From Myxococcota bacterium (GTDB taxonomy: Bacteria > Myxococcota_A > UBA9160 > PR03): a stretch of 48,865 bases of DNA. Every line of letters begins with the position of its first letter. Within the stretch, counting starts at the first letter, position 1. The stretch spans positions 1-48,865 of the forward strand of contig JBFIML010000034.1 of NCBI GenBank assembly GCA_041611735.1, written 5' to 3'. Below are positions 11,342-32,741 of this stretch, one piece after another. The notes beneath the pieces were generated by a model. The model was not told the origin of the DNA, made no database searches, and saw nothing but the letters and a program-made list of their open reading frames with translations. Position numbers and translations under genes: made by a program.

Positions 11342-11644
11342 CTAGAACATCGGCGGGAGCATGGAGGACTTGGTCGTCCGCCGAGCCTTCCTCCGCCGCG
11401 TGGCCTTCTTGCGGCGAGCCTTCTTGCGGCCACCGGCCTTCTTGCGACCGGCCTTCTTCCGCGTGCCCTTGCGGCGGCGCGTGGCCTTCTTGCGGCCGGC
11501 CTTCTTGCGGCGGGCCTTCTTGCGGCCAGCCTTCTTGCGGCGGGCCTTCTTGCGACCGGCCTTCTTCCGCGTGCCCTTGCGGCGGCGCGTGGCCTTCTTG
11601 CGGGTCGCCTTCTTCCGCGTAGCCTTCTTACGACGAGCTGCCAT
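11342..11644 (-). CDS. Histone H1/protamine-like Lys/Arg-rich protein (100 aa)
   Basis: MAARRKKATRKKATRKKAT... with pentapeptide repeats; GGGGG RBS-like run before ATG 11644. Confidence 0.85.
   Translation of the reverse strand: MAARRKKATRKKATRKKATRRRKGTRKKAGRKKARRKKAGRKKARRKKAGRKKATRRRKGTRKKAGRKKAGGRKKARRKKATRRRKARRTTKSSMLPPMF
11385..11635 (-). repeat. Imperfect 15-nt tandem repeat encoding RKKA(T/G/R), with a larger internal duplication
   Basis: Recurrent ggccttcttgcg units; RKKATRRRKGTRKKAGRKKA occurs twice. Confidence 0.9.
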
Positions 11645-11768
11645 ACCTGGGTTTCCCCCCTGTTTCGTGGTCTCCAGCTCCGCGACCCATGGGGCCTGGA
11701 AGCGGGCGGCTCCCAGCCGCTGCTCGCCGGCCCCTGCGTTGCCTCGGGGGCCGCGTCGCTTGCCGCCC

Positions 11769-11796
11769 CTATCGGAGCCCGCAACCGGCGACTTGA
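11769..11796 (-). promoter_or_regulatory. sigma28/FliA-like promoter of the histone-like gene
   Basis: TCAA-16 nt-TCCGATAG. Confidence 0.55.
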
Positions 11797-12064
11797 AGGC
11801 AAACTGCCTCCGTTCCCGACGCAAACCGCAGCCCTAGAGCCACGTCTTGCGGGTGACGCTACCACCTGGTTTCGGGGGCCGTCAAGGCAGAAGCGCAAAA
11901 AAAACAGGCTTGTGGCCCCTGTAGCTGCGGAGGTTCGGACAGCTTGCCTTCCGAAGGGAGGCCCGGAGACGAGCCGGAACGGCCCGGCAACGAGGACGGA
12001 ACCGCTGGCGCGGCACCGTGGGCGGAAGGCCGTGGACCGGAATGCGTGGCGAGGGATCGGGGCC

Positions 12065-15259: not shown

Positions 15260-15925
15260 GTGTCGGGGGACGCCATCGCCGTGGAGGGGCTCTCCAGGGG
15301 GTTCGGGGCCCGGGAAGTCCTCCGGGGGCTCGAGCTGCGAGTTGGCTCGGGAGAGTGGATCGGCCTCGCCGGGGAGAACGGCTCCGGCAAGTCGACCCTG
15401 CTGCGAATCCTGGCCGGGCTGCTCGAGCCGGGTCGGGGCCGGGTCCGGGTGGCCGGCCTCTCCCCGGCCGGGGCTCGGGCCGCGGCCCGGGTGGGCTGGT
15501 GCGGCGGGGGCGACGGGGGCTTCTCGCGGCGACTTCCGCTGAGAGCCGACCTGGAGCTGCACGGGCGTCTGCTCGGACTCTCGGGTCGCGGCCTGGGTCG
15601 GCGGATCGAAGAGCTGGCGGAGCGGCTCGGCTTCGCCTCCCACCTCGGTCTGGCGGCGGAGCGCTGCTCCACGGGCCTGCGCCAGCGTGCGGCCCTGGCC
15701 CGCGCCCTGCTCCACGATCCGCCCGTGCTGCTCCTGGACGAGCCCCTGCGCGGCGTGGATCCCGCTTCTGCTCTGGGGCTGGCCGATGAACTGCGCCGCG
15801 CCCGGTCTCCCGCGAGCGCGGTCTGGGTGTCGCACTCCCCGGCGGAGTTCGCGCGCGTGGCGGACCGGGTGCTGGAGCTTCGAAGCGGACGCCTGGCGGG
15901 GGCGACGCGAGCCCGGGCCGCGTGA
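15260..15925 (+). CDS. ABC exporter ATP-binding subunit
   Basis: GENGSGKST, signature CSTGLRQR, LLLDEP, H-loop SH. Confidence 0.9.
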   Translation: MSGDAIAVEGLSRGFGAREVLRGLELRVGSGEWIGLAGENGSGKSTLLRILAGLLEPGRGRVRVAGLSPAGARAAARVGWCGGGDGGFSRRLPLRADLELHGRLLGLSGRGLGRRIEELAERLGFASHLGLAAERCSTGLRQRAALARALLHDPPVLLLDEPLRGVDPASALGLADELRRARSPASAVWVSHSPAEFARVADRVLELRSGRLAGATRARAA

Positions 15926-16731
15926 GACGCTTCACCCGCCAGATCCTGGCCTTCGGCCGGCGTGACCTCGCCCTGGAACGCAACGCCGCGCCCTCCCTGG
16001 CGCTCGGCCTGGGATCGGGCGTGCTGGGACTGCTCGCCTATCACTACGTGGGCCGGCTCGTCTCCGACGCTCCGCCGGCTCCCCTGGCCGGTGGCGGCTA
16101 CTTCCCGTTCGTGTGCACGGGCCTGATGGTGCAGCTCGTGACGGTTGCGTTCCTCGGCGCCATCGGGGGGGGGCTGGCCCGCGAGGCCGCCGAGGGCACG
16201 CTCGAGGCGGCGCTCGCCTCGTCGGCCTCGCCGGCAGCGCTGGTGATCGGACGCAGCCTGATGCCCACGGCCCTGGCGGGCCTCCAGGCTGGCCTGTACG
16301 GAACGGTGGGGGCCGTCGCTCTGGGCCTCGACCTCTCGGGCGCGAACCTGCCGGTGGCCGGCCTCGCCCTGGCCACGACGCTGGTCGGATGCGCGCCCTT
16401 CGGTCTGCTCGGCGCGGCGGCGTGGCTCGAGGTGCGCCGGCCCGGCCTGGTGACAACGCTGGTGGGCCTGGGCTTCGGGCTCGTGGGCGGGGTCTACTTC
16501 CCGCTGGCGTTGCTGCCGGAGCCCGTGGCCCGGGCAGCGGCCTGGATCCCCCTGGCCGCCGGGCTGGAGGCGGTTCGCGCCTCCCTGCTGGAGGGCGCAG
16601 GGCTGGTCCAGGTGGCGGCGCCGCTCGGCCGCGCCGCGCTCTCCGCGCTGCTCGGTCTGCCCCTCGGCCTGGCGCTGCTCGGCTGGGGCCTCGCCCGCGC
16701 CCGGCGCCGGGGCACGCTGGCCCTCGCGTGA
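15922..16731 (+). CDS. ABC-2 type exporter permease
   Basis: Six-TM pattern, REAAEGTLE, GGVYFPLALLP; GTGA overlap with the ATPase. Confidence 0.88.
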   Translation: MRRFTRQILAFGRRDLALERNAAPSLALGLGSGVLGLLAYHYVGRLVSDAPPAPLAGGGYFPFVCTGLMVQLVTVAFLGAIGGGLAREAAEGTLEAALASSASPAALVIGRSLMPTALAGLQAGLYGTVGAVALGLDLSGANLPVAGLALATTLVGCAPFGLLGAAAWLEVRRPGLVTTLVGLGFGLVGGVYFPLALLPEPVARAAAWIPLAAGLEAVRASLLEGAGLVQVAAPLGRAALSALLGLPLGLALLGWGLARARRRGTLALA

Positions 16732-17189
16732 GCCCAGGCGGCTCGGACGCCGCGGCGCAGCGGCGCTGACACCAGCGCGAGCCAGCGGCGCGGGGGAAGG
16801 TCCAGGCGTCGCCAGCGGGCTTCCGGAGCGGCGCTGCGCCGGGTCACCGCCACGCCAAGCACCCGCTCGGAACCGACCCAGCCATCGGGACGCGGCCGGC
16901 GGTCGCCGCGCAGCAGCCAGCGCTGCCCGCGGGCGCGCACGACCCGATGCAGCACCAGGCGGCTCCCGGCCAGGGCCAGCACCACATCGCCCCGACGGGG
17001 TGGCCGCGCCACGAGACACACGCAATCGCCGGGCCGGAGCGCCGGCACCATGGAGTGGCCCCACACCCGGAGCACGAGCGGGCCCGCGCGCAGGGCGCTC
17101 CCCAGGGCGTCCAGCGCCGCCGGCTCCGCCAGCGCGGCGGCCGGGTCGAGGCCGCGCGCCTCAGGCGGCGCAGGCCGCGGAGCCCGCAT
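16494..17189 (-). CDS. S24/S26 family peptidase (putative RiPP leader peptidase)
   Basis: GHSMVPALRPGD (Ser), LHRVV (His), LRGD...DG; no signal peptide; 3' end overlaps the convergent permease. Confidence 0.78.
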   Translation of the reverse strand: MRAPRPAPPEARGLDPAAALAEPAALDALGSALRAGPLVLRVWGHSMVPALRPGDCVCLVARPPRRGDVVLALAGSRLVLHRVVRARGQRWLLRGDRRPRPDGWVGSERVLGVAVTRRSAAPEARWRRLDLPPRRWLALVSAPLRRGVRAAWAHARASVPRRRARARPQPSSARPRGRPSSAESAARPSGAATWTSPAPSSREARTASSPAARGIQAAARATGSGSNASGK

Positions 17190-18057
17190 CGGGCAGCCAG
17201 ACGAAGCGCGCCACCCTGGCGTCCCGGGCGAAGCCGAGCCGCACGATCGGCACGCGCTCGGCCAGCGCCGCCGCCAGGGCGAGGGTACGGCGAGCCGCCG
17301 GCGGATCGTGCACCGGGGCGAAGGCGTTGCCGAGCACGGCCGCGGCGGCTGCCGCGCCGCGGAGCGGGCGCGCCACGTTGTCCGGGGCGTGGTGGATGGC
17401 ATAGATCGCCTCGAGAGGCGCCGAAGCGGCGAGCGAGAGGGGGGCATCCCCATGCCACGGGGTTCCGAAGACGCGGAAGCCGCTCGCGTCGGGACGGATC
17501 ACCACGCGGTCGTCGGAGAGCACCGCGGCCTCCGCGTGACGCTGCATGAGCCGGGCGAGGGTCGTCTTTCCGGCTCCGGACGGCCCCGTGAAGAGCCGCG
17601 CACGGCCCTGGCGCGTCACGCCGCAGGCGTGCACCAGGAGCCCTCCGGCCCGGGCCACGCGGTGCAGGAAGACCACTTCGTCCAGGGGGTAGGCGAGCGG
17701 GTAGTGGCATTCGCGCACGTAGAAGGAGTCCGGAGCGAGGGTCACCTCGCCGCGGCGGAAGCCCGCATCGAAGCGGGCCAGGCGCTGGAGGCGGCCCCGG
17801 ATGCGCAGGACGAACAGCCACTGGCGCCCATGGCGGACCACGTCGAAGATGCCCCCGCCGGAGTCGTAGTGGCGCAGGCCGCCCGGGGGCAGGCGGGGCT
17901 CTGCGATCCGCACCCGTACCCGCACGTCCGCCGGTTCCGCAGCCACGGCGAAGCGGCGCAGCGGGCCGTCGGGCCACTGCCAGGGCAGCTCCGGCGGCAC
18001 CTCCACCGCCAGGCGCAGCCCCGCCACGCCCAGCCCACGCCAGCGCCTGCGGGCCAC
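17161..18057 (-). CDS. HPr kinase-related P-loop kinase (RiPP-cassette type)
   Basis: LLVHACGV, LFTGPSGAGKTT, LSDDRVV, GTPWHG. Confidence 0.82.
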   Translation of the reverse strand: MARRRWRGLGVAGLRLAVEVPPELPWQWPDGPLRRFAVAAEPADVRVRVRIAEPRLPPGGLRHYDSGGGIFDVVRHGRQWLFVLRIRGRLQRLARFDAGFRRGEVTLAPDSFYVRECHYPLAYPLDEVVFLHRVARAGGLLVHACGVTRQGRARLFTGPSGAGKTTLARLMQRHAEAAVLSDDRVVIRPDASGFRVFGTPWHGDAPLSLAASAPLEAIYAIHHAPDNVARPLRGAAAAAAVLGNAFAPVHDPPAARRTLALAAALAERVPIVRLGFARDARVARFVWLPDAGSAACAA

Positions 18058-18060
18058 GGT

Positions 18061-18255
18061 CTAGGAGCCGATGTTCATGCAGAAGACCGTGGGCTGGCTC
18101 GACTGCTGGCAGGAGCCCGCGGCGCCGCCGAAGCCTCCCGTGCCCACGTCCATCTTGCAGTTGTCCGGGAAGCTGGCCATGACGTCCAGCTCCACCAGCC
18201 GCACCCGCGGCGCCGCGTAGGGACGGCGCGCCCGCGTCCGCTTGGCCTCGCTCAC
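18061..18255 (-). CDS. Putative RiPP precursor peptide (64 aa)
   Basis: MSEAKRTRARRPYAAPRVRLVELDVMASFPDNCKMDVGTGGFGGAAGSCQQSSQPTVFCMNIGS. GGAGG RBS; GTG overlaps the rSAM stop; YxxPxV leader; Cys33/49/59; C-terminal Ser. Confidence 0.85.
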   Translation of the reverse strand: MSEAKRTRARRPYAAPRVRLVELDVMASFPDNCKMDVGTGGFGGAAGSCQQSSQPTVFCMNIGS

Positions 18256-19466
18256 GTGAGCCCTCCGATGCTGAGCAGTCCGGAGCCCCCGGATCCGCAG
18301 CCGCCGCAGCCGCCACTCCCGCACCCGCTGGCCGCCGCGCCCGCCCCCCCGCCGCCGGGTTCCGAGACCGCGTCGGCCAGGGCTCCGGAGTAGGTGCGCT
18401 CGCGCACGGCCGAGAGCCGGCACAGGAAGTCCACGTGGGAGTCCTGCCGGCTCGTCTCCCAGAGCGCCACGCCCGGGCAGTTGTGGCAGGAGACGCGGCT
18501 CGGGCAGCTGCCGCACTTCGAGGCGTCGTCGCGCCGCAAGGCGAGGATCTTGGGAAACTCCCGCCGGTAGATCTCCTCGAGCGGCTGCTCGCGCAGGCTG
18601 TGCCGGAAGTTCTTCACCATCAGGCACACCTGCACGTTCCCGTAGGGGTCCACGTGCAGGGAGTTGCGACCGGCGCCGCAGGAGAAGAGCGCATTCGGGT
18701 CCAGGGCCGGCGCGTCGTCCTCGGTCAGATGGCGGCGCCAGGCGCGGTCCTTCTCCGGGTCGGCGGCCTCGAGCGCCACGATCTCCTCGGGCGCCAGCCG
18801 CAGCGCGTGGGGGCGGCGGTCGCCCTCCATGGTCGCGAGCAGCACCGGGTCGTAGCGGAAGTCGACGCCCAGGTCCTTGGCCAGCTGCGCGAGCCCCGGG
18901 ATCTCGTGGGCGTTCTCCCGGGTGGCAGGGCACTTGAGCGCCAGGGGGTGCCCCGCCGCCAGCACGCGCTGGATGCCGGCCAGGCAGCGATCGTAGGAAC
19001 CCTGCACCGCCACCACCTGCTCGTAGACCTGACGCGTGAGCCCGTAGAGCGAGATCTCCACCAGGTAGGGGGGATAGGCCTCCCACAGCTCGGCGATGCG
19101 GTCGTCGATCAGCGTCCCGTTGGTGAAGACGGTGACCAGCATTCCGAGCTCCTTGGCATGGCGGTAGAGCTCGGGAAAGTCCTTGCGCAGCAGGGGGTCT
19201 CCCCCCGTCAGCAGCAGGAAGAGGGTTCCAAGCCCGGCGAGCCGGTCGAGCAGGGCCCGGATCTCGTCGCCCGAGAGCTCCTGGCTGCGCTCGCCCGGCG
19301 GGCAGTAGCAGTGCGTGCAGTGCAGGTTGCAGCGATAGGTGAGCTCGATGGACGCGGAGACGGGGACCCGCTCTGCGACGATGCGCCGCTTGTAGTCCTT
19401 GCTGAGCGCGTCGCTGCGCACGTGCTCGAGATGGGGCATGCGCGCCGCGGCCCGGGCGAAGTTCAC
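18252..19466 (-). CDS. Radical SAM/SPASM domain peptide maturase
   Basis: CNLHCTHC, TGGDP, FTNG; SPASM CGAG...GNVQVC...CGSCPSRVSCHNCP...FLC. Confidence 0.93.
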   Translation of the reverse strand: MNFARAAARMPHLEHVRSDALSKDYKRRIVAERVPVSASIELTYRCNLHCTHCYCPPGERSQELSGDEIRALLDRLAGLGTLFLLLTGGDPLLRKDFPELYRHAKELGMLVTVFTNGTLIDDRIAELWEAYPPYLVEISLYGLTRQVYEQVVAVQGSYDRCLAGIQRVLAAGHPLALKCPATRENAHEIPGLAQLAKDLGVDFRYDPVLLATMEGDRRPHALRLAPEEIVALEAADPEKDRAWRRHLTEDDAPALDPNALFSCGAGRNSLHVDPYGNVQVCLMVKNFRHSLREQPLEEIYRREFPKILALRRDDASKCGSCPSRVSCHNCPGVALWETSRQDSHVDFLCRLSAVRERTYSGALADAVSEPGGGGAGAAASGCGSGGCGGCGSGGSGLLSIGGLT

Positions 19467-19753
19467 GTCCCCACCTCCTCGACGCAGCCGGCCTCGACGA
19501 GCTGGGCCAGGAACTCGTCCAGGTCCGCGCGCGCGCGCGCCGGCTCCACCTCGAAGGCCCGCGTCACGGCGCGGACCACGGCGCCCGCGGGCCGGCGCCC
19601 ATCGAGGCGCTCCCAGACGAAGGTCCCGACCTCGTTCAGGGTGAAGAGACCCATCTCCTGGGCCCGGTGGCGAACCGGCACCAGGATCGTCTCTCCCGCG
19701 ATGCGCCGGGCCACGATCCCCGGCCGGCGCGCCCAGCTCCGCTCGTCGCTCAT
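19463..19753 (-). CDS. PqqD family RiPP recognition element (RRE)
   Basis: IVARRIAGETILVP...LFTLNEVGTFVWERLDG...ARADLDEFLAQL; 96 aa. Confidence 0.93.
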   Translation of the reverse strand: MSDERSWARRPGIVARRIAGETILVPVRHRAQEMGLFTLNEVGTFVWERLDGRRPAGAVVRAVTRAFEVEPARARADLDEFLAQLVEAGCVEEVGT

Positions 19754-20907
19754 CCTGCACCTCCCGGGACCGCGCGCGGGTCCGTGCTCTCCGGCGTCGC
19801 TCGCCGGCCGCGGCGCGCCACGCCCCGGGCCACGTACCACGCGTCCCCGGGACGTGCGGCCCAGGCGGCGGTGCGCGCCACGTCCCACCAGCTCTCGCCC
19901 AGCAGCAGCTTGGCCAGCCGTGCCGGCCGTCGCGCGTGGGGGCGGGCAAAGGAGACCGCCAGGCTGCGGTGCAGCAGCCGGCGCCGCACGGGCCCCGGGG
20001 CCAGCCGCGCCAGCACCTCCTTGGGCACCGGGGTGCGCAGCAGGTCCCGGGCCGCGGCAAGGCCGGCGTAGAGCGGAGCGCGCAACCGCCGCTGCTCCGC
20101 CTCCCGCAGCAGCTCGCTCCACTCCAGGGGCTCGCCGACCAGCATGCGGTGCAGGTCCACCAGCCAGATCCAGCGCTCGAACGCATGGCGCGCCCCGTGC
20201 ACGGCGCCGAACAGGAGGCTTCCCAGCCGGCTCGGGATCCGCGCACCGGGCCGTACGTCGTCGACGCACAGCTCGCGCAGGAAGATCTCTCCGGGCAACG
20301 CGAAGCCGCGCATCAGGCTCTCCGGGCCGGCCCAGGCCCAGTGCAGCTCCAGAAACACGTTCACCCCGGCCACGCGGCGGTGGAAGGCCACCTCGTGGCC
20401 TCCGGCCAGGGCGGCCGCTCCGCCCGTGGCCGGGGCGAAGCCGAGTCTCGCCAGCGTCTGCATGGCCCGTCCGCGCTCCGCGCGGGCCACGATCAGATCC
20501 AGGTCGTCCATGGGTCGGGTGCCCGCATCGGCGTAGAGCGGCGGCGTCCCCTCCAGGAAGGCCCAGCCCTTGAGCGGCGCGGCCGGGATGCCGCGGGCGG
20601 CCAGCGCCTCGCGCACCTCGGCACCGGCGGCGGTGGCCACGGCGTTGCGCCGGGCCGTGGCCCGGTGCAGCACCCGGCACAGCTCGCGGAACGAGGCCGG
20701 CAGCGGATCCGCGAGGCGCCCCTCGGCGAACGCGGCGTGCAGGAGCGGGGCCACGCGGTGTCGGCGCGCCAGGGCCCCCACCGCCTCTTCCTCGAAGGGG
20801 AGCTCGTCGTCGAAGGGATCGCCGGCCCGGGCCGAGCCCAGCGCGGTGCGCAACAGGTGGGCGAGCCAGCGCTCGGCCGGGACGCTATGGCGGGACAGCA
20901 CGATCAA
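19750..20907 (-). CDS. Nucleotidyltransferase family protein (NTP_transf_5 type); start may be 20901, 20919 or 21015
   Basis: PLKG, RPMDDLDLIV (DxD), LELHW, WLVDL; ATGA overlap with pqqD. Confidence 0.85.
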   Translation of the reverse strand: MIVLSRHSVPAERWLAHLLRTALGSARAGDPFDDELPFEEEAVGALARRHRVAPLLHAAFAEGRLADPLPASFRELCRVLHRATARRNAVATAAGAEVREALAARGIPAAPLKGWAFLEGTPPLYADAGTRPMDDLDLIVARAERGRAMQTLARLGFAPATGGAAALAGGHEVAFHRRVAGVNVFLELHWAWAGPESLMRGFALPGEIFLRELCVDDVRPGARIPSRLGSLLFGAVHGARHAFERWIWLVDLHRMLVGEPLEWSELLREAEQRRLRAPLYAGLAAARDLLRTPVPKEVLARLAPGPVRRRLLHRSLAVSFARPHARRPARLAKLLLGESWWDVARTAAWAARPGDAWYVARGVARRGRRATPESTDPRAVPGGAG

Positions 20908-20975
20908 GGCGTCCTCCACGTCCTCCGGGGAGGAGCGGAGCCGCTCCTCGGGGCTTCTCCCCAGGCGACGCCTCC

Positions 20976-21003
20976 GTATCGGACCGGAGTCCGGCCGGCT
21001 TGA
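20976..21003 (-). promoter_or_regulatory. sigma28/FliA-like promoter of the RiPP operon
   Basis: TCAA-16 nt-TCCGATAC. Confidence 0.55.
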
Positions 21004-21109: not shown

Positions 21110-22285
21110 CTAGGCGCTCGGGGCCGCGGAGGGGGCGAGGCGTCCGGTGAGAGGGCTCCGCGCCGGCAGGGCCAGCTCCCGGTAGGCCAGCTCGATGCGC
21201 TCGAAGACGGCCCGCTCGTCGAAGCAGGCCTCGGCCCGGGCGCGCGCGGCCACCCCGAGGCTGCGGGCCCGGGGCGGGTCGGCGAACAGGGCGTCGAGGG
21301 CCGCCCGCAGGGCGGCGGGGTGGCGCGGCGGCACCAGCAGACCGGTGCGGCGGTGCAGCACCGCCTCCCGGCAGCCGCGGATCGACGTGGCCACCAGCGG
21401 GCGCGCCAGGGCGGAGGCCTCCAGCAGCGCGCGCGGAAAGCCCTCCCGGTAGGAAGGCAGCACCACCGCATCCATGGCCGCCACGAAGGGGGCGGGATCC
21501 CGCTGCAGCCCCAGCCAACGCACGCCGGGACGGGCGGCGAGCCGCTCGGGAGCCAGGGCGTCTTGCTTGGCGATGCGCTCGTCGGGCCCCACCAGCCAGA
21601 GCGCGAGCCCCGGGCGTCCGGCCACGGCGCGCACCAGGTCCTCGACTCCCTTCTCCCGCACCAGACGGCCCACGAACCCGACCACGCGCTCGCCGGCCCG
21701 CACGCCGAGCCTGCGTCGCACCGCCGCGCGAGCGTCCGGCCCGAAGCGCAGCGGTGCGAAGCGGGCCAGGTCGACCCCGTTGCCCAGCGGGCGCAGGCGC
21801 TCGTCGGGCACGATGCGTCGCCAGCGGGCCGTGCGCACGTCCTCCGCACTCTGGCACAGCACCAGGTCCGCCAGGCGCGCGGAGAGCGCTTCGACGGCAC
21901 GCCAGCTGCGACGCACCCAGCGTCGCTGTCCCTCGTGCGAGTAGAGGCCGTGCACGGTGGAGACGACGCGCGGCACGCCGGCCAGGCGGGCGGCCAGCGC
22001 CCCCAGCGCGTTCACCTTGGGGTTGTGGGTGTGCACCACGTCGTAGCCCTGGCGGCGGAAGAGCCTCACGTAGCGCAGCAGGGTGGCCACGTCGGCCAGG
22101 GGCTCGATGCGGCGGGAGTTGGCCACGGCGTGCACGCACCAGCCCTCGGCGCGAAGCTCCTCGACCAGGTCGCCGGGGCCGCACACGATCTCCACGTGGT
22201 GCCCGGCGGCGCGCAGGGCACCCAGCTGCCCGCGCAGCAGGAAGGCACAGAAGTAGTCCGTGTTGGCGACGTGGGCGATGCGCAT
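21110..22285 (-). CDS. GT4 glycosyltransferase
   Basis: VHTHNPK, GNGVD, FVGRLVREKG, PSYREGFPRALLEA. Confidence 0.93.
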   Translation of the reverse strand: MRIAHVANTDYFCAFLLRGQLGALRAAGHHVEIVCGPGDLVEELRAEGWCVHAVANSRRIEPLADVATLLRYVRLFRRQGYDVVHTHNPKVNALGALAARLAGVPRVVSTVHGLYSHEGQRRWVRRSWRAVEALSARLADLVLCQSAEDVRTARWRRIVPDERLRPLGNGVDLARFAPLRFGPDARAAVRRRLGVRAGERVVGFVGRLVREKGVEDLVRAVAGRPGLALWLVGPDERIAKQDALAPERLAARPGVRWLGLQRDPAPFVAAMDAVVLPSYREGFPRALLEASALARPLVATSIRGCREAVLHRRTGLLVPPRHPAALRAALDALFADPPRARSLGVAARARAEACFDERAVFERIELAYRELALPARSPLTGRLAPSAAPSA

Positions 22286-22292
22286 GGTGCCC

Positions 22293-24179
22293 TCACGCGA
22301 CGCGGTGCCGGGTGCCCCAGTCGGTCAGCACCACCAGGCTCCAGATCCGCCAGGCGTGGTCGGCCCGGCGGCGGGCGTGCTCCTGCACGAGGCGGCTCAC
22401 CGCAGCGGAGTCGAGCCATCCCGTGCGCCGCAGCCGTTCGGGGGCCAGCGTGTCCGCCACGAACTCCCCCAGCGCCCCCCGGATCCAGCCGCCGACCGGG
22501 GCGTCGAAGCCGGCCTTCGCGCGGCGCCGCACGGCGGCGGGCAGTCGCGGCCCGAAGACGTCGAGCAGCGCCAGCTTGCCGCGCCCGCCGCGCTGCTTGC
22601 GGAGCGAGGGGAGCCGCACCGCATGCTCCACCACGCGGTGGTCCAGGAAGGGCACGCGCACCTCGAGGCCGTGAGCCATGCTGCCCCGGTCCACCTTGAC
22701 CAGCATGTCGTCCGGAAGCCCGAGGCAGAGGTCGACGCGCAGCCGGGCATCCAGGCCGTCGCGGCCGCCGAGCCGCGCACGCAGCTCGCAGAAGTGGGCG
22801 AAGCCCGCCTCGCCGTCGCCGTCCAGGCCCGGCACCAGGGCCTGCTTCTCAACGGCCCGGAACAGGCACCCCAGCGCGAAGGCACGCCCCGGTTCGGAGA
22901 GGCCTTCCGCCTCCAGCAGCTTGCGCGCGCGTCGGCCCAGCTCCCCGAGGCGGCTGGCCCGGTCCTCCCCGAGCCGACGCAGGAGCGGTCCCACCACCCG
23001 CTGGCGCAGCGGGGCCGGGAGACGCTGCCAGCGGGCGAGCCAGTGCTCGGCCCGGTAGCGGCGATAGCCGGCGAAGAGCTCGTCGGCTCCGTCTCCCGCC
23101 AGCACGACGGTGACCCGCTCCCGGGCGGCGCGCGCAAGGAGGCTCACGGGCAGCAGGGAAGAGTCCGCCAGCGGCTCGTCGAGGCGGGCCACCAGGGCGG
23201 GCGCACTCCGGCGCACCTCGTCGCCACGAATCGCTACCTCGTGGTGGCGCGTGCCCAGGAAGCGCGCCGCCCGGCGGGCGTAGTCTCCCTCGTCGAGGCG
23301 CGGGCACTCCGGGAAGCGGGCGGAGAAGGTGTCCAGGGAGCCGCGCTCCCGCACCGCGAGGGCGGTGACCAGGGTCGAGTCGAGGCCGCCCGAGAGGAAG
23401 CTTCCCACCGGGACGTCGCTGCGCAGCTGCAGGCGCACCGCATCCACCAGCTTCGCGTACAGGCCCTCGCGCCAGCCCCGGGGCCCTGCCTGCTCCGGAG
23501 CAGGCAGCGACCACCAGCGCTCGATGCGTGCCCGGCCGCGCTCCCACACGAGCAGGGTTCCGGGCTGGAGCTTCGCGATGCCCCGGACCAGCGTCCGCGG
23601 CGACGGCGCGAAGCCGAAGTCGAGATAGGCGGAGAGCGCAGCCCGGTCGAGATGGCGCTCGGCCCGAGGATCCACGAGCAGCACCGCGAGCTCCGAGGCG
23701 AAGGCCATCCCGCGCGGCCCGTTGCGATGGAAGAGGGGCTTCACGCCGAGCCGATCGCGCACCAGGGTGAGGCGTCCGGGCTCGGGCTCCCAGAAGGCGG
23801 CGGCGAAGATCCCGTTGGCCTGCCGGAAGGCCTCGGGTCCCTGCGCCTCGAAGAGCTCGAGCAGCACCTCCGTGTCGGTGCGCGTGCGCCAGGGGAAGCC
23901 CGCCAGACGGCGGCGCAGCTCCGGGTGGTTGAAGATCTCCCCGTTCAGGACGATCCACGTGCGTCCCGAGCGACTCGCCATGGGCTGGGCGCCCGCGGGC
24001 GTGGGATCGAAGACCGCCAGGCGGCGGTGGACGAGGCCCGCCCGCCAGTCGCCCGCCGCAGCGGGCGGCCGCACGATGCCCTCTCCGTCCGGCCCCCGGT
24101 GCGCCAGCGCCGCCGCCATGCCGCGCAGCGACGCCTCCTCGACGGCTCCTCGCGCCACGATGCCGGCGATGCCGCACAC
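22293..24179 (-). CDS. asnB: Asparagine synthase (glutamine-hydrolysing)-like amidotransferase
   Basis: N-terminal MCGIAG, HRGPD, NGEIFN, RDRLGVKPL, LSGGLDS, GDGADELF, EVRVPFLD. Confidence 0.93.
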   Translation of the reverse strand: MCGIAGIVARGAVEEASLRGMAAALAHRGPDGEGIVRPPAAAGDWRAGLVHRRLAVFDPTPAGAQPMASRSGRTWIVLNGEIFNHPELRRRLAGFPWRTRTDTEVLLELFEAQGPEAFRQANGIFAAAFWEPEPGRLTLVRDRLGVKPLFHRNGPRGMAFASELAVLLVDPRAERHLDRAALSAYLDFGFAPSPRTLVRGIAKLQPGTLLVWERGRARIERWWSLPAPEQAGPRGWREGLYAKLVDAVRLQLRSDVPVGSFLSGGLDSTLVTALAVRERGSLDTFSARFPECPRLDEGDYARRAARFLGTRHHEVAIRGDEVRRSAPALVARLDEPLADSSLLPVSLLARAARERVTVVLAGDGADELFAGYRRYRAEHWLARWQRLPAPLRQRVVGPLLRRLGEDRASRLGELGRRARKLLEAEGLSEPGRAFALGCLFRAVEKQALVPGLDGDGEAGFAHFCELRARLGGRDGLDARLRVDLCLGLPDDMLVKVDRGSMAHGLEVRVPFLDHRVVEHAVRLPSLRKQRGGRGKLALLDVFGPRLPAAVRRRAKAGFDAPVGGWIRGALGEFVADTLAPERLRRTGWLDSAAVSRLVQEHARRRADHAWRIWSLVVLTDWGTRHRVA

Positions 24180-24182
24180 GGC

Positions 24183-25082
24183 TCAGCCGACGCCCCACGC
24201 CCGCCGCCGCTCGGCCCGGCAGGCGGCCACCCCACGCCACTGGTCGCGAAGCGCCCGGCGCAGATGCGGGCGCCCGAGCGCCTGGAGCAGCTTCGCGCCC
24301 TGGAACACGACGAGGCCCGGAAGCTGCGCCACGAACTCCCGGCGCCGAGCGTTGCGCAGGGAGAGCCACAGCCGGTTGCGCACCAGGTGATACTCGACGA
24401 ACGCCGGCGAGGCGCCCGACCCGCCGCGCTGGTGCTCGGCCTCCGCGTCCGGCACGTAGCGGGTGCGCCAGCCCGCGCGCCGCAGCCGCCAGGCCAGGTC
24501 CACGTCCTCGTAGTACATGAAGAAGCGCTCGGCGAAGGGCGCCTCGCCGGGCACGGAGATGCGGCGCAGGGCGGCGGAGCGGTAGAGTGCCGCCGCCCCG
24601 CAGGCCCCGAACACGTCCTCCTCCCGGGGGTGGCGCTCCGGGGCGGCCCCGCGGCCACGGTCCAGATAGCGGCCGCGGGCGAGCGAGCACGCGATCCCCG
24701 CCGAATCGAGACGCCGGGGCCGACCGGGCGCCAGCAGGCGGCCTCCCGCGGCAGCCAGGCCCGGGTCCCGCTCCAGGGCGCTGGCGAGCCGGCTGAGGAA
24801 CCCGGGCCGCAGCACCACGTCGGGATTCAGGACCAGGAACCAGCGGCCCCGGGCGCGGGCGAAGTTGCGGTTGTGGGCGGCCGCGTAGCCCACGTTGCGA
24901 GCCAGCGCCCTCAGCTCCACGTCCGGATACCGGCGCCGCAGGTGAGCCACAGTGCCATCGTCGGAGGCGTTGTCCACCACCAGGATCTCGCCCACGACGG
25001 GCCCCTGCGCGCGCAGCGCCTGCAGACAGTCGTCCAGCCCGGCGCGGCTGCGGTAGGTCACGAGGCTGACGGAGACGGACAC
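24183..25082 (-). CDS. GT2 glycosyltransferase (rhamnosyltransferase-like)
   Basis: VVDNASDDG, NVGYAAAHN, LNPD, FFMYYEDVDL. Confidence 0.92.
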   Translation of the reverse strand: MSVSVSLVTYRSRAGLDDCLQALRAQGPVVGEILVVDNASDDGTVAHLRRRYPDVELRALARNVGYAAAHNRNFARARGRWFLVLNPDVVLRPGFLSRLASALERDPGLAAAGGRLLAPGRPRRLDSAGIACSLARGRYLDRGRGAAPERHPREEDVFGACGAAALYRSAALRRISVPGEAPFAERFFMYYEDVDLAWRLRRAGWRTRYVPDAEAEHQRGGSGASPAFVEYHLVRNRLWLSLRNARRREFVAQLPGLVVFQGAKLLQALGRPHLRRALRDQWRGVAACRAERRRAWGVG

Positions 25083-26362
25083 GCCGATCCTCCCGGGGCC
25101 ATCAGCTCCTCGAAGCCCGCCACCATCCGGCCCAGGGTGGCGTCGCAGGCGAGGGCGTCGCGGGCCGCCGCTGACGCGGCCGGGATCCGCTCACCGCGCC
25201 GCACGCGAGCGTGCAGCAGCGCCAGGGCGGCCAGCGTCGCCTCCCGATCGCGGGGGTCCGCCACCAGGCCGAGTCCGAAGCGCTGCACCAGACGCGTGAG
25301 CGAGCCGGGCGGCGCCAGCGCCAGCACCGGGCGCTCCGCCCCCGCCGCATCGAAGAGCTTGCCGGGCACGGGCTGACCGCCGAGGGGGCCGTCGGCGCCG
25401 AGCACGAGCGCCACGTGGGCGGCGCGCAGCACGCGGCCGAGCTCGGCCCGGGGCGCCGGCGGCTCCACGCGCACCCAGCCCGCCAGGCCGGCCCGGCGAA
25501 CGGCGGCGGCGACGGCGGGCTCCGCGCCCACCAGGCGCACACGCACCTGGGCGGGAACCCGCGCATCGCGCCGGGACCACACGCGCAGGGCATCGATCAG
25601 ACGCTCCAGCATCCCGCTGCGGTTCAGGAGCAAGGTGCCCGCGTGCACGATCTCGAAGCGCTGCGCCGGGGGCTCCACGTGCCTCCAGGCCGCGAACTCT
25701 TCCGGCGCGAAGCCGGTCAGCGCCAGCTCGCTGCGGGCGGCCAGGCCCGGCATGCGTGCGCGGTAGTGCTCGGCGACCGCCTCGGAGGCGAAGAAGACCC
25801 GATCGGCCCGGCGCAGCACGCCGGCCTCGAGGCGCCGCTCGAAGGCCTGGCGACGCGCCGGGAGCGCCACGCGCGAGTGATCGCAGGTCCAGCCGTCGCG
25901 GAAGTCCGCCACCCAGGGCACGCCGCAGGCTTGCGCCGCCAGCCCGGGGAGGTGGGCCGAGTACGGCGGACAGCTGGTGTAGACGAGGTCCACGCAGCGG
26001 GTAGCCGCCAGCGCCGCCGCGACGGGGGCGGCGAGCAGGCTCCAGCCCACGTGCAGGTCCGGGACCAGCCAGCGCGCCAGCCGCCCGGGCGTGCCGGGCG
26101 CACAGCCTCCCCTTCCACGCCGCGCGCGTCGGGCGAGCCGACCCCAGTCGGGGTTCAGGAGGCGGATCAAGCGAGTGCCGGCCGCAACCTGCGCCAGGCC
26201 CGCCGGGTCCTGGACCCAGGCGGCGTGATCGACGCTGAGCACCACGGGCTGCCAGCCCGCCGCGGCCAGGGCGCGCACCACCTTCACGGTGCGGCTCACG
26301 CCGCCGCCGCCCACGGGCGGGAAGTAGTAGGCCACCACCAGGGCGCGTCGGGAGCCTCTCAT
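25058..26362 (-). CDS. GT4-like glycosyltransferase
   Basis: VVAYYFPPVGGGGVSR, TSCPPYS, WVADFRDGW, PGKLFD. Confidence 0.88.
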   Translation of the reverse strand: MRGSRRALVVAYYFPPVGGGGVSRTVKVVRALAAAGWQPVVLSVDHAAWVQDPAGLAQVAAGTRLIRLLNPDWGRLARRARRGRGGCAPGTPGRLARWLVPDLHVGWSLLAAPVAAALAATRCVDLVYTSCPPYSAHLPGLAAQACGVPWVADFRDGWTCDHSRVALPARRQAFERRLEAGVLRRADRVFFASEAVAEHYRARMPGLAARSELALTGFAPEEFAAWRHVEPPAQRFEIVHAGTLLLNRSGMLERLIDALRVWSRRDARVPAQVRVRLVGAEPAVAAAVRRAGLAGWVRVEPPAPRAELGRVLRAAHVALVLGADGPLGGQPVPGKLFDAAGAERPVLALAPPGSLTRLVQRFGLGLVADPRDREATLAALALLHARVRRGERIPAASAAARDALACDATLGRMVAGFEELMAPGGSACPSPSAS

Positions 26363-27525
26363 GTTTCCGCCATCCAGCGCGCCAGGCGTGCCGCGGCCGC
26401 GTCGAGACGGAAGCGGCGCTCGACCTCCCTGCGTGCGCGAGTGCCCAGTGCGCGCCGCCGGGCGGGGTCGTCGAGCAGCGCCGCGAGGGCTCCCGCCAGG
26501 GCATCGGGGCGACCCGGGGGAACGAGCCATCCGGTGCGGCCGTGCGCGACGGCCTCGCCGATGCCGCCCACGGCCGTGGTCACCACGGGACGCGCCGCCG
26601 CCATGGCCTCCAGCAGGGCGACGGGCAGCCCGTCGTGGCAGCGTCCGCCGTCCACCGTCACGCACGGCAGCACGAAGAGCGCCGCGCGGCCCAGGGCGTG
26701 CGCCACCTGTTGGCGGCCCACCTCGCCCTCGAACTGCACGTGGTCCCGGAGACCGAGGGCCCGCACGCGTCGCCTCAGGAGCGGCTCGAGCGGCCCGCCG
26801 CCGAGCAGGCGCACCCGGAAGCGCTGCCGCCGGGCCGCCAGCTGCGCGGCCGCCTCGAGCAGGACCGGGATGCCCTTCTTGGCCACCAGCCGGGCCACGC
26901 AGACGATCTCCGGCGGATCCGCTTCGGGCTCCGCTGCCGGGGCGAAGCAATCCACGTCGACGCCCAGATGGGAGACCCGGATGCGCTGCGCCGCTTCCTC
27001 GCCGGCGGCGGCCCGCAGGCGGGCGCTGGTCTCGCGCGAGATGGCGCGCACGAAGGCCGCCTCGGCCACCAGGCGCGGCAGCCAGGGACGCGGGAGCTGC
27101 ACGTCGTAGGCGTGGCCCGTGAAGCTGAACGGCAGGCCCGCAAGCCGTGCCGCGGCCCAGGCGGTCCAGGCCGGGAAGGTGGCGAAGCTCCCGTGCAGGT
27201 GCTGCCAGCCCTCGACGCGGGCACGCTGCGCCAGGTGGGCCGCCAGCAGCACCAGGCGACCCGGCGCGCCCTCGCGTGCCGCCCGCCGCAGGATCGGGAG
27301 CAGCCGCGCGGGATGGACGCGTAGATCCCGCCACGCGCTGCGTAGCCAGGCGGCGCGTCCGCGTCCCGGGTAGAGCACCGGGCCGCCGTAGGCCGCTTCC
27401 CAGCGCGGAGCGGGGTCCGGGCGGAAGACCGCCGCCACCCGCACGTCGAGGCCGGCCTGGCGCAGGGCGCCCACCTCCTCCGCCACGAACGAGCAGGCGT
27501 TCTCCACCAGGACCGCGACCTTCAT
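26359..27525 (-). CDS. GT4 glycosyltransferase (WcaL-like)
   Basis: FTGHAYD, VARLVAKKG, DGLPVALLEAMA. Confidence 0.9.
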   Translation of the reverse strand: MKVAVLVENACSFVAEEVGALRQAGLDVRVAAVFRPDPAPRWEAAYGGPVLYPGRGRAAWLRSAWRDLRVHPARLLPILRRAAREGAPGRLVLLAAHLAQRARVEGWQHLHGSFATFPAWTAWAAARLAGLPFSFTGHAYDVQLPRPWLPRLVAEAAFVRAISRETSARLRAAAGEEAAQRIRVSHLGVDVDCFAPAAEPEADPPEIVCVARLVAKKGIPVLLEAAAQLAARRQRFRVRLLGGGPLEPLLRRRVRALGLRDHVQFEGEVGRQQVAHALGRAALFVLPCVTVDGGRCHDGLPVALLEAMAAARPVVTTAVGGIGEAVAHGRTGWLVPPGRPDALAGALAALLDDPARRRALGTRARREVERRFRLDAAAARLARWMAET

Positions 27526-28835
27526 GCGGGCTGGGCCTCCATGCCGGCTGGGGCGTCCTCGCTGTGCGCCCCACGCCGGCCGCGACGCACGACGATCCCC
27601 ACCGCGCCGAACAGGAGGAAGAGCACCATCACCTGGGCACGATGCCGGTAGGCGGTGCCCAGGTTCGACTCGACCAGCGCATACGAGACGGTCACGAACA
27701 AGAGGAAGGCCAGGATGGGCAGTGACGCGGCCAGTCGCGTACGCAACGCATGCACGATCCCGATGGCGACGAAGGGGATCAATGCGTACCAGGCCAGCAT
27801 CTCCGGGAGCGTCAGCACCTGGCGTGCGTTCCAGACCTGCCAGGGCGCCGGGGCGAGCAGGAAGTAGGCCAGCCCGAGCGGAAGGAAGCGCAGCGCCTTG
27901 GACGGCGAGGACACGTCCGCGTCGCCGTAGTAGGCGGAGCCGCCCAGGGCGAGATCCTGACGCGCCCGGTCCAGGCTCTCGAAGCTCACCTCCTCGGCGA
28001 GCTCGCCCACGCTTCCCACCACCGGAGCTCCCAGGGCACCCACGGCGAGCAGGAGCGCCATCCCCAGCGGCGCCTGCGCGCCCCGCAAGCGCGGCAGCAA
28101 CCAGGCCATGGCGAGGGCGCAGCCGGCCACGAGCAGCAGGTAGGAGCGCAGCTGGCCGATGCCCAGGGCCCCCGCCGCCAGGGCGGAGACGGCTCCCAGG
28201 GAGAGTCCGCCCTGGAGCTTCTGCGCACCACGCAGGAGCAGCAGGATCGAGAGCAGAACGCAGGCATCCTTCAGGTTGAGGCTCGACCACAGCACGAGCG
28301 ACGGCCAGAAGGCGGCGAGTGCAGCCGCCACGCGGGCCGCGCCTGGCCCGGCGACCTCGCGCGCCAGTCCGTGAACGAGCAGCACCGACAGGCCGCCGAC
28401 GGCCGCGTTCACCAGGGCGGGCACGAGCCCGTGGGGTCCGAACAGCCGGAACAGGAGACCGTTCCAGACGTAGTAGCCCACGGGCGGGTGCAGGGCGGGA
28501 AGCGGGCCCTCCCCTTCCCAGTGCCGGGCCAGGGCCGCGCCGAGCAGTTCGTAGCGGCGGTCGTCCAGGGCGAAGAAGCCGTCCGGCACCGCATAGGCCA
28601 CGACGAGGGCCAGGGCCGCGCGCACCGCCACGGCGCCCAGGAAGAGTCCCAGCAGCACGCGCCGCTCGCGGGAGTCCGAGCGGATCGCCAGCCCGAGCGC
28701 CACGGGCAGCGCCACCAGGGCCAACGCCGCCAGGCCTGCGGGCACGGCGGCGGGAACCCGGGCCACCGCCAGGGCCAGGCCCGCGCCGAGGCCCACGCCG
28801 ACGATCCACTCGCGTCCCGGCGCCCTCGCCTTCAC
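27522..28835 (-). CDS. Polytopic membrane protein, Wzy polymerase/GT-C-like
   Basis: About 10-12 TM segments, DDRRY, SLNLKD, NLGTAYRHR; overlaps both neighbours by 4 nt. Confidence 0.7.
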   Translation of the reverse strand: MKARAPGREWIVGVGLGAGLALAVARVPAAVPAGLAALALVALPVALGLAIRSDSRERRVLLGLFLGAVAVRAALALVVAYAVPDGFFALDDRRYELLGAALARHWEGEGPLPALHPPVGYYVWNGLLFRLFGPHGLVPALVNAAVGGLSVLLVHGLAREVAGPGAARVAAALAAFWPSLVLWSSLNLKDACVLLSILLLLRGAQKLQGGLSLGAVSALAAGALGIGQLRSYLLLVAGCALAMAWLLPRLRGAQAPLGMALLLAVGALGAPVVGSVGELAEEVSFESLDRARQDLALGGSAYYGDADVSSPSKALRFLPLGLAYFLLAPAPWQVWNARQVLTLPEMLAWYALIPFVAIGIVHALRTRLAASLPILAFLLFVTVSYALVESNLGTAYRHRAQVMVLFLLFGAVGIVVRRGRRGAHSEDAPAGMEAQPA

Positions 28836-30853
28836 GAGCGTTCCCGCTGCGCACGCTCGACGGGGAGCCGGGCCAGGGCTTCCACGAGCCGAGGGTCCTC
28901 CGGCCGGCGCGCCAGTCCGCGCCGCAGGGTGTCCCGGGCCCGGGCCGTGGCCCCCGCGTGCAGCCAGGCCCCGGTGGCCTCGAGCACGAGGTCCACGTCG
29001 CCGGGTTCGAGGCGCACGGCCCGGTCGAAGGAGTCCGCCGCCGCCCGGGCGTGTCCGTGGCGGCGCAGCAGGCGGCCCGCCTGCCGCAGCACGACGGCGT
29101 CCCGCGGCACGGCGGCCTGCACGAGCTTCGGGTCGTCGGTGGCGCGCAGCAGCGCGAGCAGCGCGACGTCCGACACCCACCACTGCCGTTCCACCGCGGC
29201 GCGTACCGCCGAGGCCGCCTCCTCCCGCCGACCCGCTTCGAGCAGCATGCGCGCCCGCACCAGCTCCGGCGCCGCGGAGTTGCGATCCAGATCCCGGGCC
29301 CGGGCCACCGCCCGGAGCGCGCTGCCGAGGGCGCCGGCCCGCCACTCGGTGCGGGCCGCCGCCAGGTGCAGGGCCGCCTCGCGCGGGCTCGCCGCCACCG
29401 CGCGCGCGCGGGCCGCGCGGGCGCGGACCCGGGCGGCTGCTCCCTCCGCCCCGATCCGATGGGCTTCCTCGGCTGCCTCGCCCACCAGGCCCCAGAGCGC
29501 GGCGCGAGCCGGCCGCAGTCGCAGGCCGACGCGTGCCGCACGCTCCGCTGCGGCGAAGTCTCCGCGGGCGAGCGCGAGCTCCGCGCGCCGCTCGGCCGCC
29601 AGGGCAGCGGTGCGGGTGCCCGCGAGCACCAGCAGCAGCGCCCCGAGCGCGGCGAGCACGACGCGTGTGGCCGTGGCGTCGCTGCGCGTGGTCGCACCCG
29701 ACTGGGTGGCCCGCCAGAGCGCGCCCGCCAGGACCGCACCCGCCAGGGCGATGGCCGGTACGTGCAGCGGGAAGTCCACCAGGGCGTGCGCCGCCAGGGC
29801 CAGCAGCGCCACGGCCAGGCCCCAGGTGGTGCGCGAGCCCGAGCGGGGAAGGCGCAGCGCGGCACGCCGCGTGGCAGCGCAGATCGTCACCCCGAGCAGG
29901 GCCACGAAGGGAATCCCGAGCTCCAGGGCGCCGTGCAGGGGCTCGCTGTGGGCCTGATCCACCCGGTAGGGGATCGTGCCGGGCCGAAGCGCGTGGAAGC
30001 CGGGTCCGAAGGCACCGATCCCGACGCCCAGGGGCGCTTGCGCCGGGATCGCGCGGGCCACCGCCCCGTACAACGCCCAGCGCATGCCGGCCGACGACTC
30101 CCCTGCAGCGGGGTGCGCCGGGAGCACGTCCGGCAGCAGGGCAGGCAGCAGCGCCAGGGCGACGGCGGCGGCCGCTCCCGCCGCGCCCAGCAGGGGCAGG
30201 CTGCGGCGCGGCCCGAGGCGCACCAGGGCGCCAAGCCCCGCCACGGCCACCAGACCCGCGACGACGGCGCCCCGGGAGCGCGTGGCCACGACGCCCGCGA
30301 TCCCCAGGGTGAGCAGTCCGAACCAGAGCAGCGCAGTCTCGCGCCGGCCGCGGCTCGGGATGCCACCCCGCAGCACGTGCACCAGTGCGATGCCCGTCGG
30401 CAGCAGCAGCCAGCCCGCCAGGTGGTTCGGATTTCCGAAGGGACGCACGGCGCGCTCGCCCGGGAGCGCGCTCGCAATGGCCAGGCTCCCCACCGCGGCC
30501 CCCAGCGCCGCGAAGCGCATGGCGAAGCGACGCCGCTGGCCCGGGTCGAGCAGCGCGGCCGCCAGCACGAAGACCACTGCCCCCGCCAGCAGCGCGCCGG
30601 CGCCATCCAGGGACGGGTCCCGGGAGACGCTCCAGAGCGTGGAGCCCAGGGCGAGACCGCTCCACGCCAGGGCGACGGCCAGGGCGCCGGCCGGCGCGCC
30701 GCGCAGCTCCGGACGGCAGGCGGCAGCCAGGGCCAGCGCCGCCGCACCCAGCTGGAGCGTCGCGGCACCCGCCGGGGTGACGCCGCCCTGCCACACGGCC
30801 GCCCCCGCCAGCAGCGCGAACAGCAGCGCCGCGAGCCGGTGTCGCACCCTCAC
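28832..30853 (-). CDS. O-antigen ligase (Wzy_C) family protein with C-terminal TPR repeats
   Basis: PFGNPNHLAG, TRSRGA, GVGIGAF, AHSEPLH...ELG, HALVDFPLH, followed by TPR-like helices. Confidence 0.88.
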   Translation of the reverse strand: MRVRHRLAALLFALLAGAAVWQGGVTPAGAATLQLGAAALALAAACRPELRGAPAGALAVALAWSGLALGSTLWSVSRDPSLDGAGALLAGAVVFVLAAALLDPGQRRRFAMRFAALGAAVGSLAIASALPGERAVRPFGNPNHLAGWLLLPTGIALVHVLRGGIPSRGRRETALLWFGLLTLGIAGVVATRSRGAVVAGLVAVAGLGALVRLGPRRSLPLLGAAGAAAAVALALLPALLPDVLPAHPAAGESSAGMRWALYGAVARAIPAQAPLGVGIGAFGPGFHALRPGTIPYRVDQAHSEPLHGALELGIPFVALLGVTICAATRRAALRLPRSGSRTTWGLAVALLALAAHALVDFPLHVPAIALAGAVLAGALWRATQSGATTRSDATATRVVLAALGALLLVLAGTRTAALAAERRAELALARGDFAAAERAARVGLRLRPARAALWGLVGEAAEEAHRIGAEGAAARVRARAARARAVAASPREAALHLAAARTEWRAGALGSALRAVARARDLDRNSAAPELVRARMLLEAGRREEAASAVRAAVERQWWVSDVALLALLRATDDPKLVQAAVPRDAVVLRQAGRLLRRHGHARAAADSFDRAVRLEPGDVDLVLEATGAWLHAGATARARDTLRRGLARRPEDPRLVEALARLPVERAQRERS

Positions 30854-32724: not shown

Positions 32725-32741
32725 GGTCGTTCCACCCCTCC

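Follow-up and report, generated by a model that had tools for sequence, protein, structure and literature searches.

A radical SAM peptide cassette with putative phospho-tailoring genes adjoins an exopolysaccharide locus in a Myxococcota bacterium

A 48,865-nt stretch of DNA from a Myxococcota bacterium (contig JBFIML010000034.1, assembly GCA_041611735.1; this whole stretch of DNA is called the window below) carries at 15260-21003 a cassette of eight genes that is almost certainly a real pathway for a peptide that ribosomes synthesize and that is modified post-translationally (RiPP). It comprises a nucleotidyltransferase (NTase), a discrete RiPP recognition element (RRE), a radical S-adenosylmethionine (rSAM) enzyme with a SPASM domain, a 64-residue precursor, an HprK-like kinase, a peptidase, and an ABC-2 exporter of two genes. 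In the reading that we prefer, with a probability of roughly 0.55, the phospho-tailoring set known from LPP and paeninodin clusters is combined here with a sactisynthase-like rSAM enzyme. The cassette is intact and uncharacterized, and its product, as yet undefined, is likely a short peptide with internal cross-links whose tail bears phosphate and sugar. Genes, motifs, selection, and linkage are observed, while every reaction step is inferred from them.

All eight genes are present in the window, with their catalytic motifs intact. Six lie on the minus strand, from the NTase to the peptidase, and face a plus-strand pair encoding the exporter ATPase (15260-15925, PF00005) and permease (15922-16731, PF01061). 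The cassette junctions include three 4-nt overlaps (ATGA or GTGA) and one 3-nt gap, and the start codon of the NTase agrees exactly with that of a 385-aa database protein. The order NTase-PqqD-rSAM-peptide-kinase-peptidase-ABC permease recurs at six of eight loci from GTDB genomes, the other two being cut by contig ends, and thus the coupling exceeds chance; an earlier note on this DNA, which had described a tightly coupled operon facing an ABC exporter, was right in this respect. The cassette is single copy in its source genome, where one orthologous rSAM gene occurs, and the relatives of the locus are labelled as Myxococcota genome bins; in a sample of the phylum, 4 of 401 genomes match. As to the limits of the system, which the note had called complete at 15260-21003, the cassette is intact within them, but the run continues from an exopolysaccharide (EPS) locus on the same strand (21110-34839) with no operon start at 21003, and this EPS context had been missed. 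A scan for sigma-70 promoters and terminators gave no signal above that of shuffled sequences.

The 64-residue open reading frame (ORF) at 18061-18255 is a genuine precursor under purifying selection. It has a Y13xxP16xV18 leader, a predicted core from F29 to S64 with C33-K34, C49, and C59, and a terminal G63-S64. At the seven GTDB loci that reach the ORF, the precursor is 74 to 93% identical to that of the window, versus 57 to 70% for the kinase and 45 to 61% for the peptidase, and in all 10 pairs formed with the window sequence, pN/pS lay between 0.11 and 0.35. We then assembled 88 related loci (the 8 from GTDB and the best 80 of 578 metagenome matches) and searched them for precursors with our own iterated profiles. 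A precursor was found at 59 of the 66 loci that have a full rSAM gene and at least 600 nt downstream; at the remaining seven eligible loci, the iterated profiles detected none. Of the 35 loci that span 9 kb or more, 33 have PqqD, 33 the kinase, and 33 the precursor; at these 35 loci we further found the peptidase at 29, the NTase at 13, and the ABC-2 permease at 7. The core of the system therefore consists of RRE, rSAM, precursor, kinase, and peptidase, whereas the NTase and the exporter, previously counted as parts of the cassette and indeed present in the window, are accessory across the family.

A profile built from 47 precursors, which themselves had no meaningful family match in NCBIfam, matches 2,680 representatives (clusters at 50% identity) at E <= 0.001. 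Residue statistics were taken from the best 149 of 150 representatives, after the highest-ranking hit, P0127, a tandem repeat of 1,184 aa, had been removed as spurious; the resulting counts are partly circular, as the sequences were selected by profile. Y(-16), P(-13), L(-6), C(+5), and K(+6) each occur in 149/149, a terminal Ser in 144/149, and three Cys in 145/149, of which 126 have the last Cys five residues from the end. The clade of the window differs from the wider family in its leader end (V-M-A-S versus E-E-A), in its Cys spacing (15 and 9 residues versus modes of 12 to 13 and 5), and at core position 8, which is Asp in 11/11 precursors of the clade and Ser, Ala, or Thr elsewhere. Precursors with neither Lys(+6) nor a Ser at the end make up a subfamily at loci L065, L066, L067, L068, L073, L079, and L087, where full-length kinases carry Glu-Asp in place of Asp-Asp.

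Recognition and removal of the leader are best explained by the RRE (19463-19753, PF05402, 64.4 bits) and the soluble S24/S26 (SpI-like) peptidase (16494-17189, PF00717, weak TIGR02228), a probable leader peptidase. By sequence, the RRE is closest in the PDB to the LppB complex 9x8z (E 0.0015), and D77 of the RRE is kept in 73 of 74 sequences. The peptidase retains its S46 in 43/46 sequences and H81 and D96 in 46/46, with no predicted transmembrane segment; its frame is open to 16494 (231 aa), so that about 79 terminal codons lie antisense to the permease gene, an overlap of 238 nt (window 16494-16731). When Y13 is set to -16 as in LppA, S28 falls at -1, where the EEA of the family also ends. 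A ternary model of RRE, precursor, and peptidase scored 0.68 (runs 0.03, 0.68, and 0.69), compared with 0.01 for the best control, with contact agreement of at least 43% and partner pLDDT of at least 75; this mark is reached by 116/157 solved and 2/215 mismatched pairs, counts that apply roughly here. The model depends on the RRE and puts precursor residues 20 to 28 in contact with the peptidase, its Ser and His among the contacts, which supports binding among the three partners. Altogether, it is highly likely that the peptidase cleaves the leader in an RRE-dependent manner.

The HprK-like kinase (17161-18057) carries H143, K164, D182, and D183, conserved in 52, 52, 48, and 45 of 52 sequences, respectively. 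A PDB sequence search found no true homologue, and the matches to HprK_rel_B, ScmC, and HprK_rel_A are all below cut-off. Ser64, proposed in the earlier note as the kinase target, is the sole near-invariant hydroxyl in the precursor and covaries with the kinase: the four kinases that have Glu in place of Asp182 (L065, L068, L073, and L079) adjoin precursors without K(+6) and the terminal Ser, and every scored precursor neighboring the other 48 ends in Ser. We therefore regard phosphorylation of Ser64 as quite likely. The site is not certain, because other HprK-like RiPP kinases modify Ser3 of the core, namely LppK (PMC13381572) and BsfK (Duan 2023, PMC10368454), according to the available text of these papers.

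The NTase (19750-20907; NTP_transf_5, PF14907, 127.6 bits) belongs to the PsmN/LppN family. Its K113, D135-x-D137, and H189 are intact, and G114, D135, D137, and H189 are invariant in 20 aligned sequences. No true homologue was found by a PDB sequence search, and a fold search gave no match at E <= 0.001, the likeness to ANT(2'')-Ia being weak (E about 0.008). Of the 36 loci that span 9 kb or more, 12 have the NTase together with EPS markers, 2 the NTase alone (one at a contig end), 1 EPS markers alone, and 21 neither; the pairing of NTase and EPS genes appears at about six places on a quick rSAM tree. Eleven of the 36 loci lie near a giant C25 protease, and just one of these has an NTase. NTase-less copies of the cassette often stand beside giant Peptidase C25 genes (L046, L047, L063, L064, L066, L075, L076, and L079), and L068 carries both a C25 gene and an NTase.

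The comparison extended to 225 genomes of the class. The precursor is present in 10 of them, and the orthologue of the GT4 glycosyltransferase adjacent to the NTase in 12, the same 12 that have a Wzc orthologue (at least 54% identity); the 10 are among the 12. The two genomes with GT4 and Wzc orthologues and no precursor are G116 (92% complete) and G017 (68% complete). In G116, the slot of the rSAM module is occupied by a lasso cluster (L126:5251-14258, G116:C19) with B1, B2, a cyclase-like gene, and a 53-aa precursor ending in Ser-Leu, of which B2 and the precursor score above cut-off; the cluster also contains another HprK-like kinase, a SAM methyltransferase, an MsbA-type ABC exporter, and an NTase, the second of this genome, which is intact. 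In G017, the NTase lies directly beside khpA on a gap-free segment (L132:13419-15117), and no peptide module was found in this slot. The ABC-2 exporter ATPase accompanies the rSAM module and was not found in the slots of G116 and G017. The orthologous NTases of both genomes have lost K113 and either D135 or D137, residues that are kept in the nine carrier rows of the alignment; conservation of GT4, AsnB, and Wzc, by contrast, is undiminished in these two genomes. Full K113/D135/D137/H189 sets are retained by 57 of 63 NTase homologues at 53% identity or above (two of the six misses are fragments) and are missing from 20 of 21 below this value. The sequences can be read to mean that NTase catalysis is needed alongside the peptide module, that an EPS locus can persist in the absence of the peptide, and that the scaffold is swappable. 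The degenerate NTases, about 20 (P0337-P0359), are mostly full length and come from at least four lineages, with genomic context known for two only; a pseudo-enzyme role is possible for them.

These data bear on an alternative in which the RiPP core is real and the NTase belongs to the EPS locus, so that the peptide would be just phosphorylated, as in LPP and possibly at an internal Ser or Thr, and not glycosylated. Of the 36 long loci, 22 lack the NTase and 14 carry it, 12 of the latter with EPS markers; the gene persists in G017 after loss of the module, and LppN had no detectable effect (PMC13381572, available text). However, the NTases of G017 and G116 have decayed next to conserved EPS genes, the lasso module of G116 brings an intact NTase of its own, and PsmN is required for the hexose on phosphoserine, as the available text of PMC6993621 reports. 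We consider this alternative possible but unlikely, and it is somewhat more likely than not that the NTase acts on the phosphopeptide.

The rSAM/SPASM enzyme (18252-19466, 404 aa; PF04055 and PF13186) has a CxxxCxxC motif and seven SPASM cysteines, and these 3 + 7 Cys are invariant in 50 sequences. SkfB is its best solved relative both by sequence and by fold (model pLDDT 86). The residues close to the catalytic site, read by eye from alignments and published text, are Y54-T87-F114-S139-L282-M283; SkfB (Y-T-F-S-Q-L) agrees at 4/6 of them, StsB (Y-T-I-S-K-L) at 3/6, and PqqE and CteB at 1/6 each, positions 5 and 6 being variable in the family. The cassette has the hallmarks of a sactipeptide system, an RRE-dependent rSAM enzyme with a SPASM/twitch domain and a Cys-rich core. 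No Asp, Glu, or aromatic acceptor is conserved in the core among the 149 representatives, which favors thioethers to alpha-carbons and makes aromatic C-C crosslinks, an option raised in the earlier note, unlikely in this family. From these comparisons, thioether formation at Cys appears likely, and linkage to alpha-carbons is the type that we would favor, if by less. The tail of the enzyme (residues 371 to 404, window 18252-18360) is Gly/Cys-rich and disordered, has an LLxIGG-like end, and recurs in 32 of the 44 homologues that are close.

Alternatively, the enzyme may form no sactionines and instead decarboxylate the invariant C-terminus oxidatively, like MftC, or act on Lys34, with the cysteines serving as disulfide or metal ligands. 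Its closest NCBIfam models are those of MftC (114.9 bits) and AhbD (112.8 bits), K(+6) occurs in all of the best 149 representatives and disappears along with the terminal Ser, and the Cys spacing is variable. Yet StsB, a sactisynthase, is likewise nearest to MftC, the best solved relative is SkfB, a Cys count that is odd and does not vary fits thioether formation, as does a seven-Cys SPASM domain, and the rSAM gene is retained where the terminal Ser is lost. We judge this explanation to be rather unlikely. A ranthipeptide, with Cys joined to side-chain beta- or gamma-carbons, is improbable: the seven-Cys SPASM pattern does align with that of CteB, but the agreement near the catalytic site is poor (1/6), and no Asp, Glu, or Thr is conserved at a fixed distance from any Cys in the 149 representatives, so that an acceptor of the Cx3D kind is lacking. 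A lasso peptide closed between the Phe29 amine and Asp36 (core position 8) by the AsnB-like enzyme, which is encoded 1.4 kb upstream of the NTase, would suit the lasso-type YxxP leader and the invariant Asp of the clade but is very improbable, since that enzyme scores 168.7 as a lasso cyclase, where the cut-off is 525, and 440.8 as the EPS amidotransferase, is missing from the locus in two carriers (L024 and L026), has no B2 partner in the cassette, and would meet Ser, Ala, or Thr at position 8 across the family.

Returning to a phospho-tailoring set joined to a sactisynthase-like enzyme, the earlier note had pointed to paeninodin and pseudomycoidin; their kinase and NTase families are present here, but the nearest characterized system is that of the LPPs, which has an SpI-like leader peptidase. 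According to the available text of Popov 2026 (PMC13381572), LPP clusters, studied in Paenibacillus alginolyticus (lppA/K/B/S/D/N), contain an SpI-like peptidase, an RRE, an HprK kinase, an NTP transferase, and an exporter and occur in polysaccharide loci, and LppS cleaves after T(-1) with the RRE required. The cassette has this same set: a discrete RRE with its best PDB match in LPP, a YxxPxV leader, an HprK-like kinase, a soluble Ser-His-Asp peptidase of the SpI-like type, NTP_transf_5 (as in LppN), an exporter, and a polysaccharide-locus setting. A peptidase of the family, A2Z14_13090, two locus tags from the rSAM match A2Z14_13100, is in cluster 3 of the sequence similarity network of that paper, unstudied. 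In contrast to LPP, the cassette adds an rSAM/SPASM enzyme between RRE and precursor and a three-Cys core, its precursor has no HQxIxFETxxS motif and Asp rather than Ser at +3, and its exporter is ABC-2 rather than MsbA-type; the host of the window, moreover, does not belong to the Bacillota. It is thus no LPP proper, since of the YxxPxVLxHQxIxFETxxS leader with core Ser3 just YxxPxV is common to both, and an rSAM/SPASM enzyme does not fit a linear product. The main text of the LPP paper contains none of the words "radical," "rSAM," and "SPASM."

With paeninodin and pseudomycoidin (PadeK, PsmK, and PsmN), the cassette shares a kinase with the HKDD motif of lasso-peptide kinases (review PMC9266682, available text), a conserved C-terminal Ser, a DxD nucleotidyltransferase, and a [YW]xxP leader with a discrete RRE; PsmN-dependent transfer of a hexose to the C-terminal phosphoserine has been described (Zyubko 2019, PMC6993621). 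It differs in having a serine-type leader peptidase and neither lasso cyclase nor B2, macrocyclization being assigned to the rSAM enzyme, and the upstream AsnB gene is both below cut-off and dispensable; an identity with paeninodin-type lasso clusters was therefore rejected. The proposal that an rSAM enzyme replaces the lasso cyclase in a paeninodin-type module has found a natural test case in the slot of G116, even if LPP is the closer known system.

The description as uncharacterized holds in that no product is defined, but sister precursors have been published before as sactipeptides by prediction: Precord 2023 (PMC10288494, available text) lists them as "Other Uncharacterized" (group 6 and singletons) and predicts sactisynthases for all six uncharacterized groups, to which group 6, judging from its size, should belong. 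These sisters have EEAVL-xx-CK, three Cys, mostly a terminal Ser, and an RRE-associated rSAM enzyme, and the rSAM enzyme of the window resembles the sactisynthases SkfB and StsB in its catalytic-site residues. Group 6 differs in its WxxP leaders, up to three rSAMs, and a sactipeptide status that is prediction alone, and the clade of the window in its divergent leader end and longer, near-invariant core; the words "kinase" and "nucleotidyl" do not occur in the main text of that paper. Loci L093, L096, L100, and L109 carry as many as three rSAMs and as many as four precursors, and L093 and L096 resemble group 6. The suggested kinship with SynChlorMet and HprK-related A/B systems (TIGR04248-04251, TIGR04352, and TIGR04355), themselves without a defined product, is borne out by the architecture of PqqD, rSAM/SPASM, and HprK-like kinase and not by the scores, which are far below cut-offs for ScmC, ScmD, ScmE, and ScmF (32/125, 33.5/100, 69/400, and 61.2/400) and for the kinase against TIGR04352 and TIGR04355 (22/200 and 35/200); there is also one rSAM and not two. 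In the literature searched, which leaves most subscription papers outside its coverage, no paper uses the term "SynChlorMet" and none characterizes an rSAM enzyme together with the kinase/NTase set.

In the pathway that we propose, the RRE would bind the Y13xxP16xV18 leader, and the rSAM/SPASM enzyme would join up to three Cys (33, 49, and 59) to backbone alpha-carbons with a loss of 2 Da each, Gly63 being one likely acceptor. The kinase would then (poly)phosphorylate Ser64, and the SpI-like peptidase, docked on the RRE, would cut near Ser28|Phe29, giving a core of 36 aa with an unmodified mass of 3597.5 Da. The NTase, perhaps with an EPS-locus glycosyltransferase, would cap the phosphate with a hexose or a nucleoside monophosphate, and the ABC-2 pair would export the product, whose probable place of action, shared with the exopolysaccharide, is the cell surface. 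Several points weigh against this scheme. Its product is undefined, and the reactions are deduced from genes; the best NCBIfam matches of the rSAM enzyme, MftC and the AhbD/NirJ decarboxylases, are below cut-off, and two of its six catalytic-site positions vary within the family. One of three complex runs failed (0.03), the model score may partly reflect RRE-leader complexes that have already been solved, and the V-M-A-S leader end of the clade departs from E-E-A, so that the cut site may shift. The covariation of kinase and precursor amounts to one or two evolutionary events, and LppK and BsfK do not target the C-terminus. As to the NTase, deletion of lppN gave no detectable change, at L068 an NTase lies 5 kb away from a Ser-less precursor, and since degenerate NTases remain full length in at least four lineages, the NTase may have a role independent of the peptide.

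Directly upstream of the NTase lies the final gene of the EPS locus, the GT4 glycosyltransferase (21110-22285, minus strand), a candidate partner for sugar donation. The remainder of this Wzy-type locus (22293-34839, minus strand) encodes the AsnB-like amidotransferase, a GT2 and two GT4 glycosyltransferases, a PMT-like protein, Wzy_C/TPR, Wzc, Wza, and a BBP2 barrel, and a secreted-looking protein of 401 aa without a Pfam match heads it (34839-36041). A histone-like, Arg/Lys-rich repeat protein is encoded near rpoZ (11342-11824).

Each enzyme class of the cassette was already known, and the hosts found in this analysis are uncultured genome bins; what the locus adds is the swap of lasso and rSAM modules and the coupling of NTase and EPS genes. 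We found no thioether RiPP with a glyco-phosphate tail in the literature searched, and the precursor family comprises at least 2,680 clusters without a defined product. One chromosomal site offers a three-way natural comparison of an rSAM module, a lasso module, and no module with a degenerate NTase, and singles out the adjacent GT4 as the candidate NTase partner. Why phospho-RiPP clusters occupy polysaccharide loci and what the NTase does are questions left open in Popov 2026 (PMC13381572, available text). It is tempting, if speculative, to assume that kinase and NTase form a portable connector that ties a RiPP scaffold of whatever kind, be it an rSAM thioether, a lasso, or a linear peptide, to the exopolysaccharide pathway, in which the C-terminal phosphoserine would bear EPS sugars through a phosphodiester, the polymer would be primed, capped, or anchored by the peptide, and scaffolds would be interchangeable at a single EPS locus. 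If true, paeninodins, LPPs, and the family described here would have a shared function.

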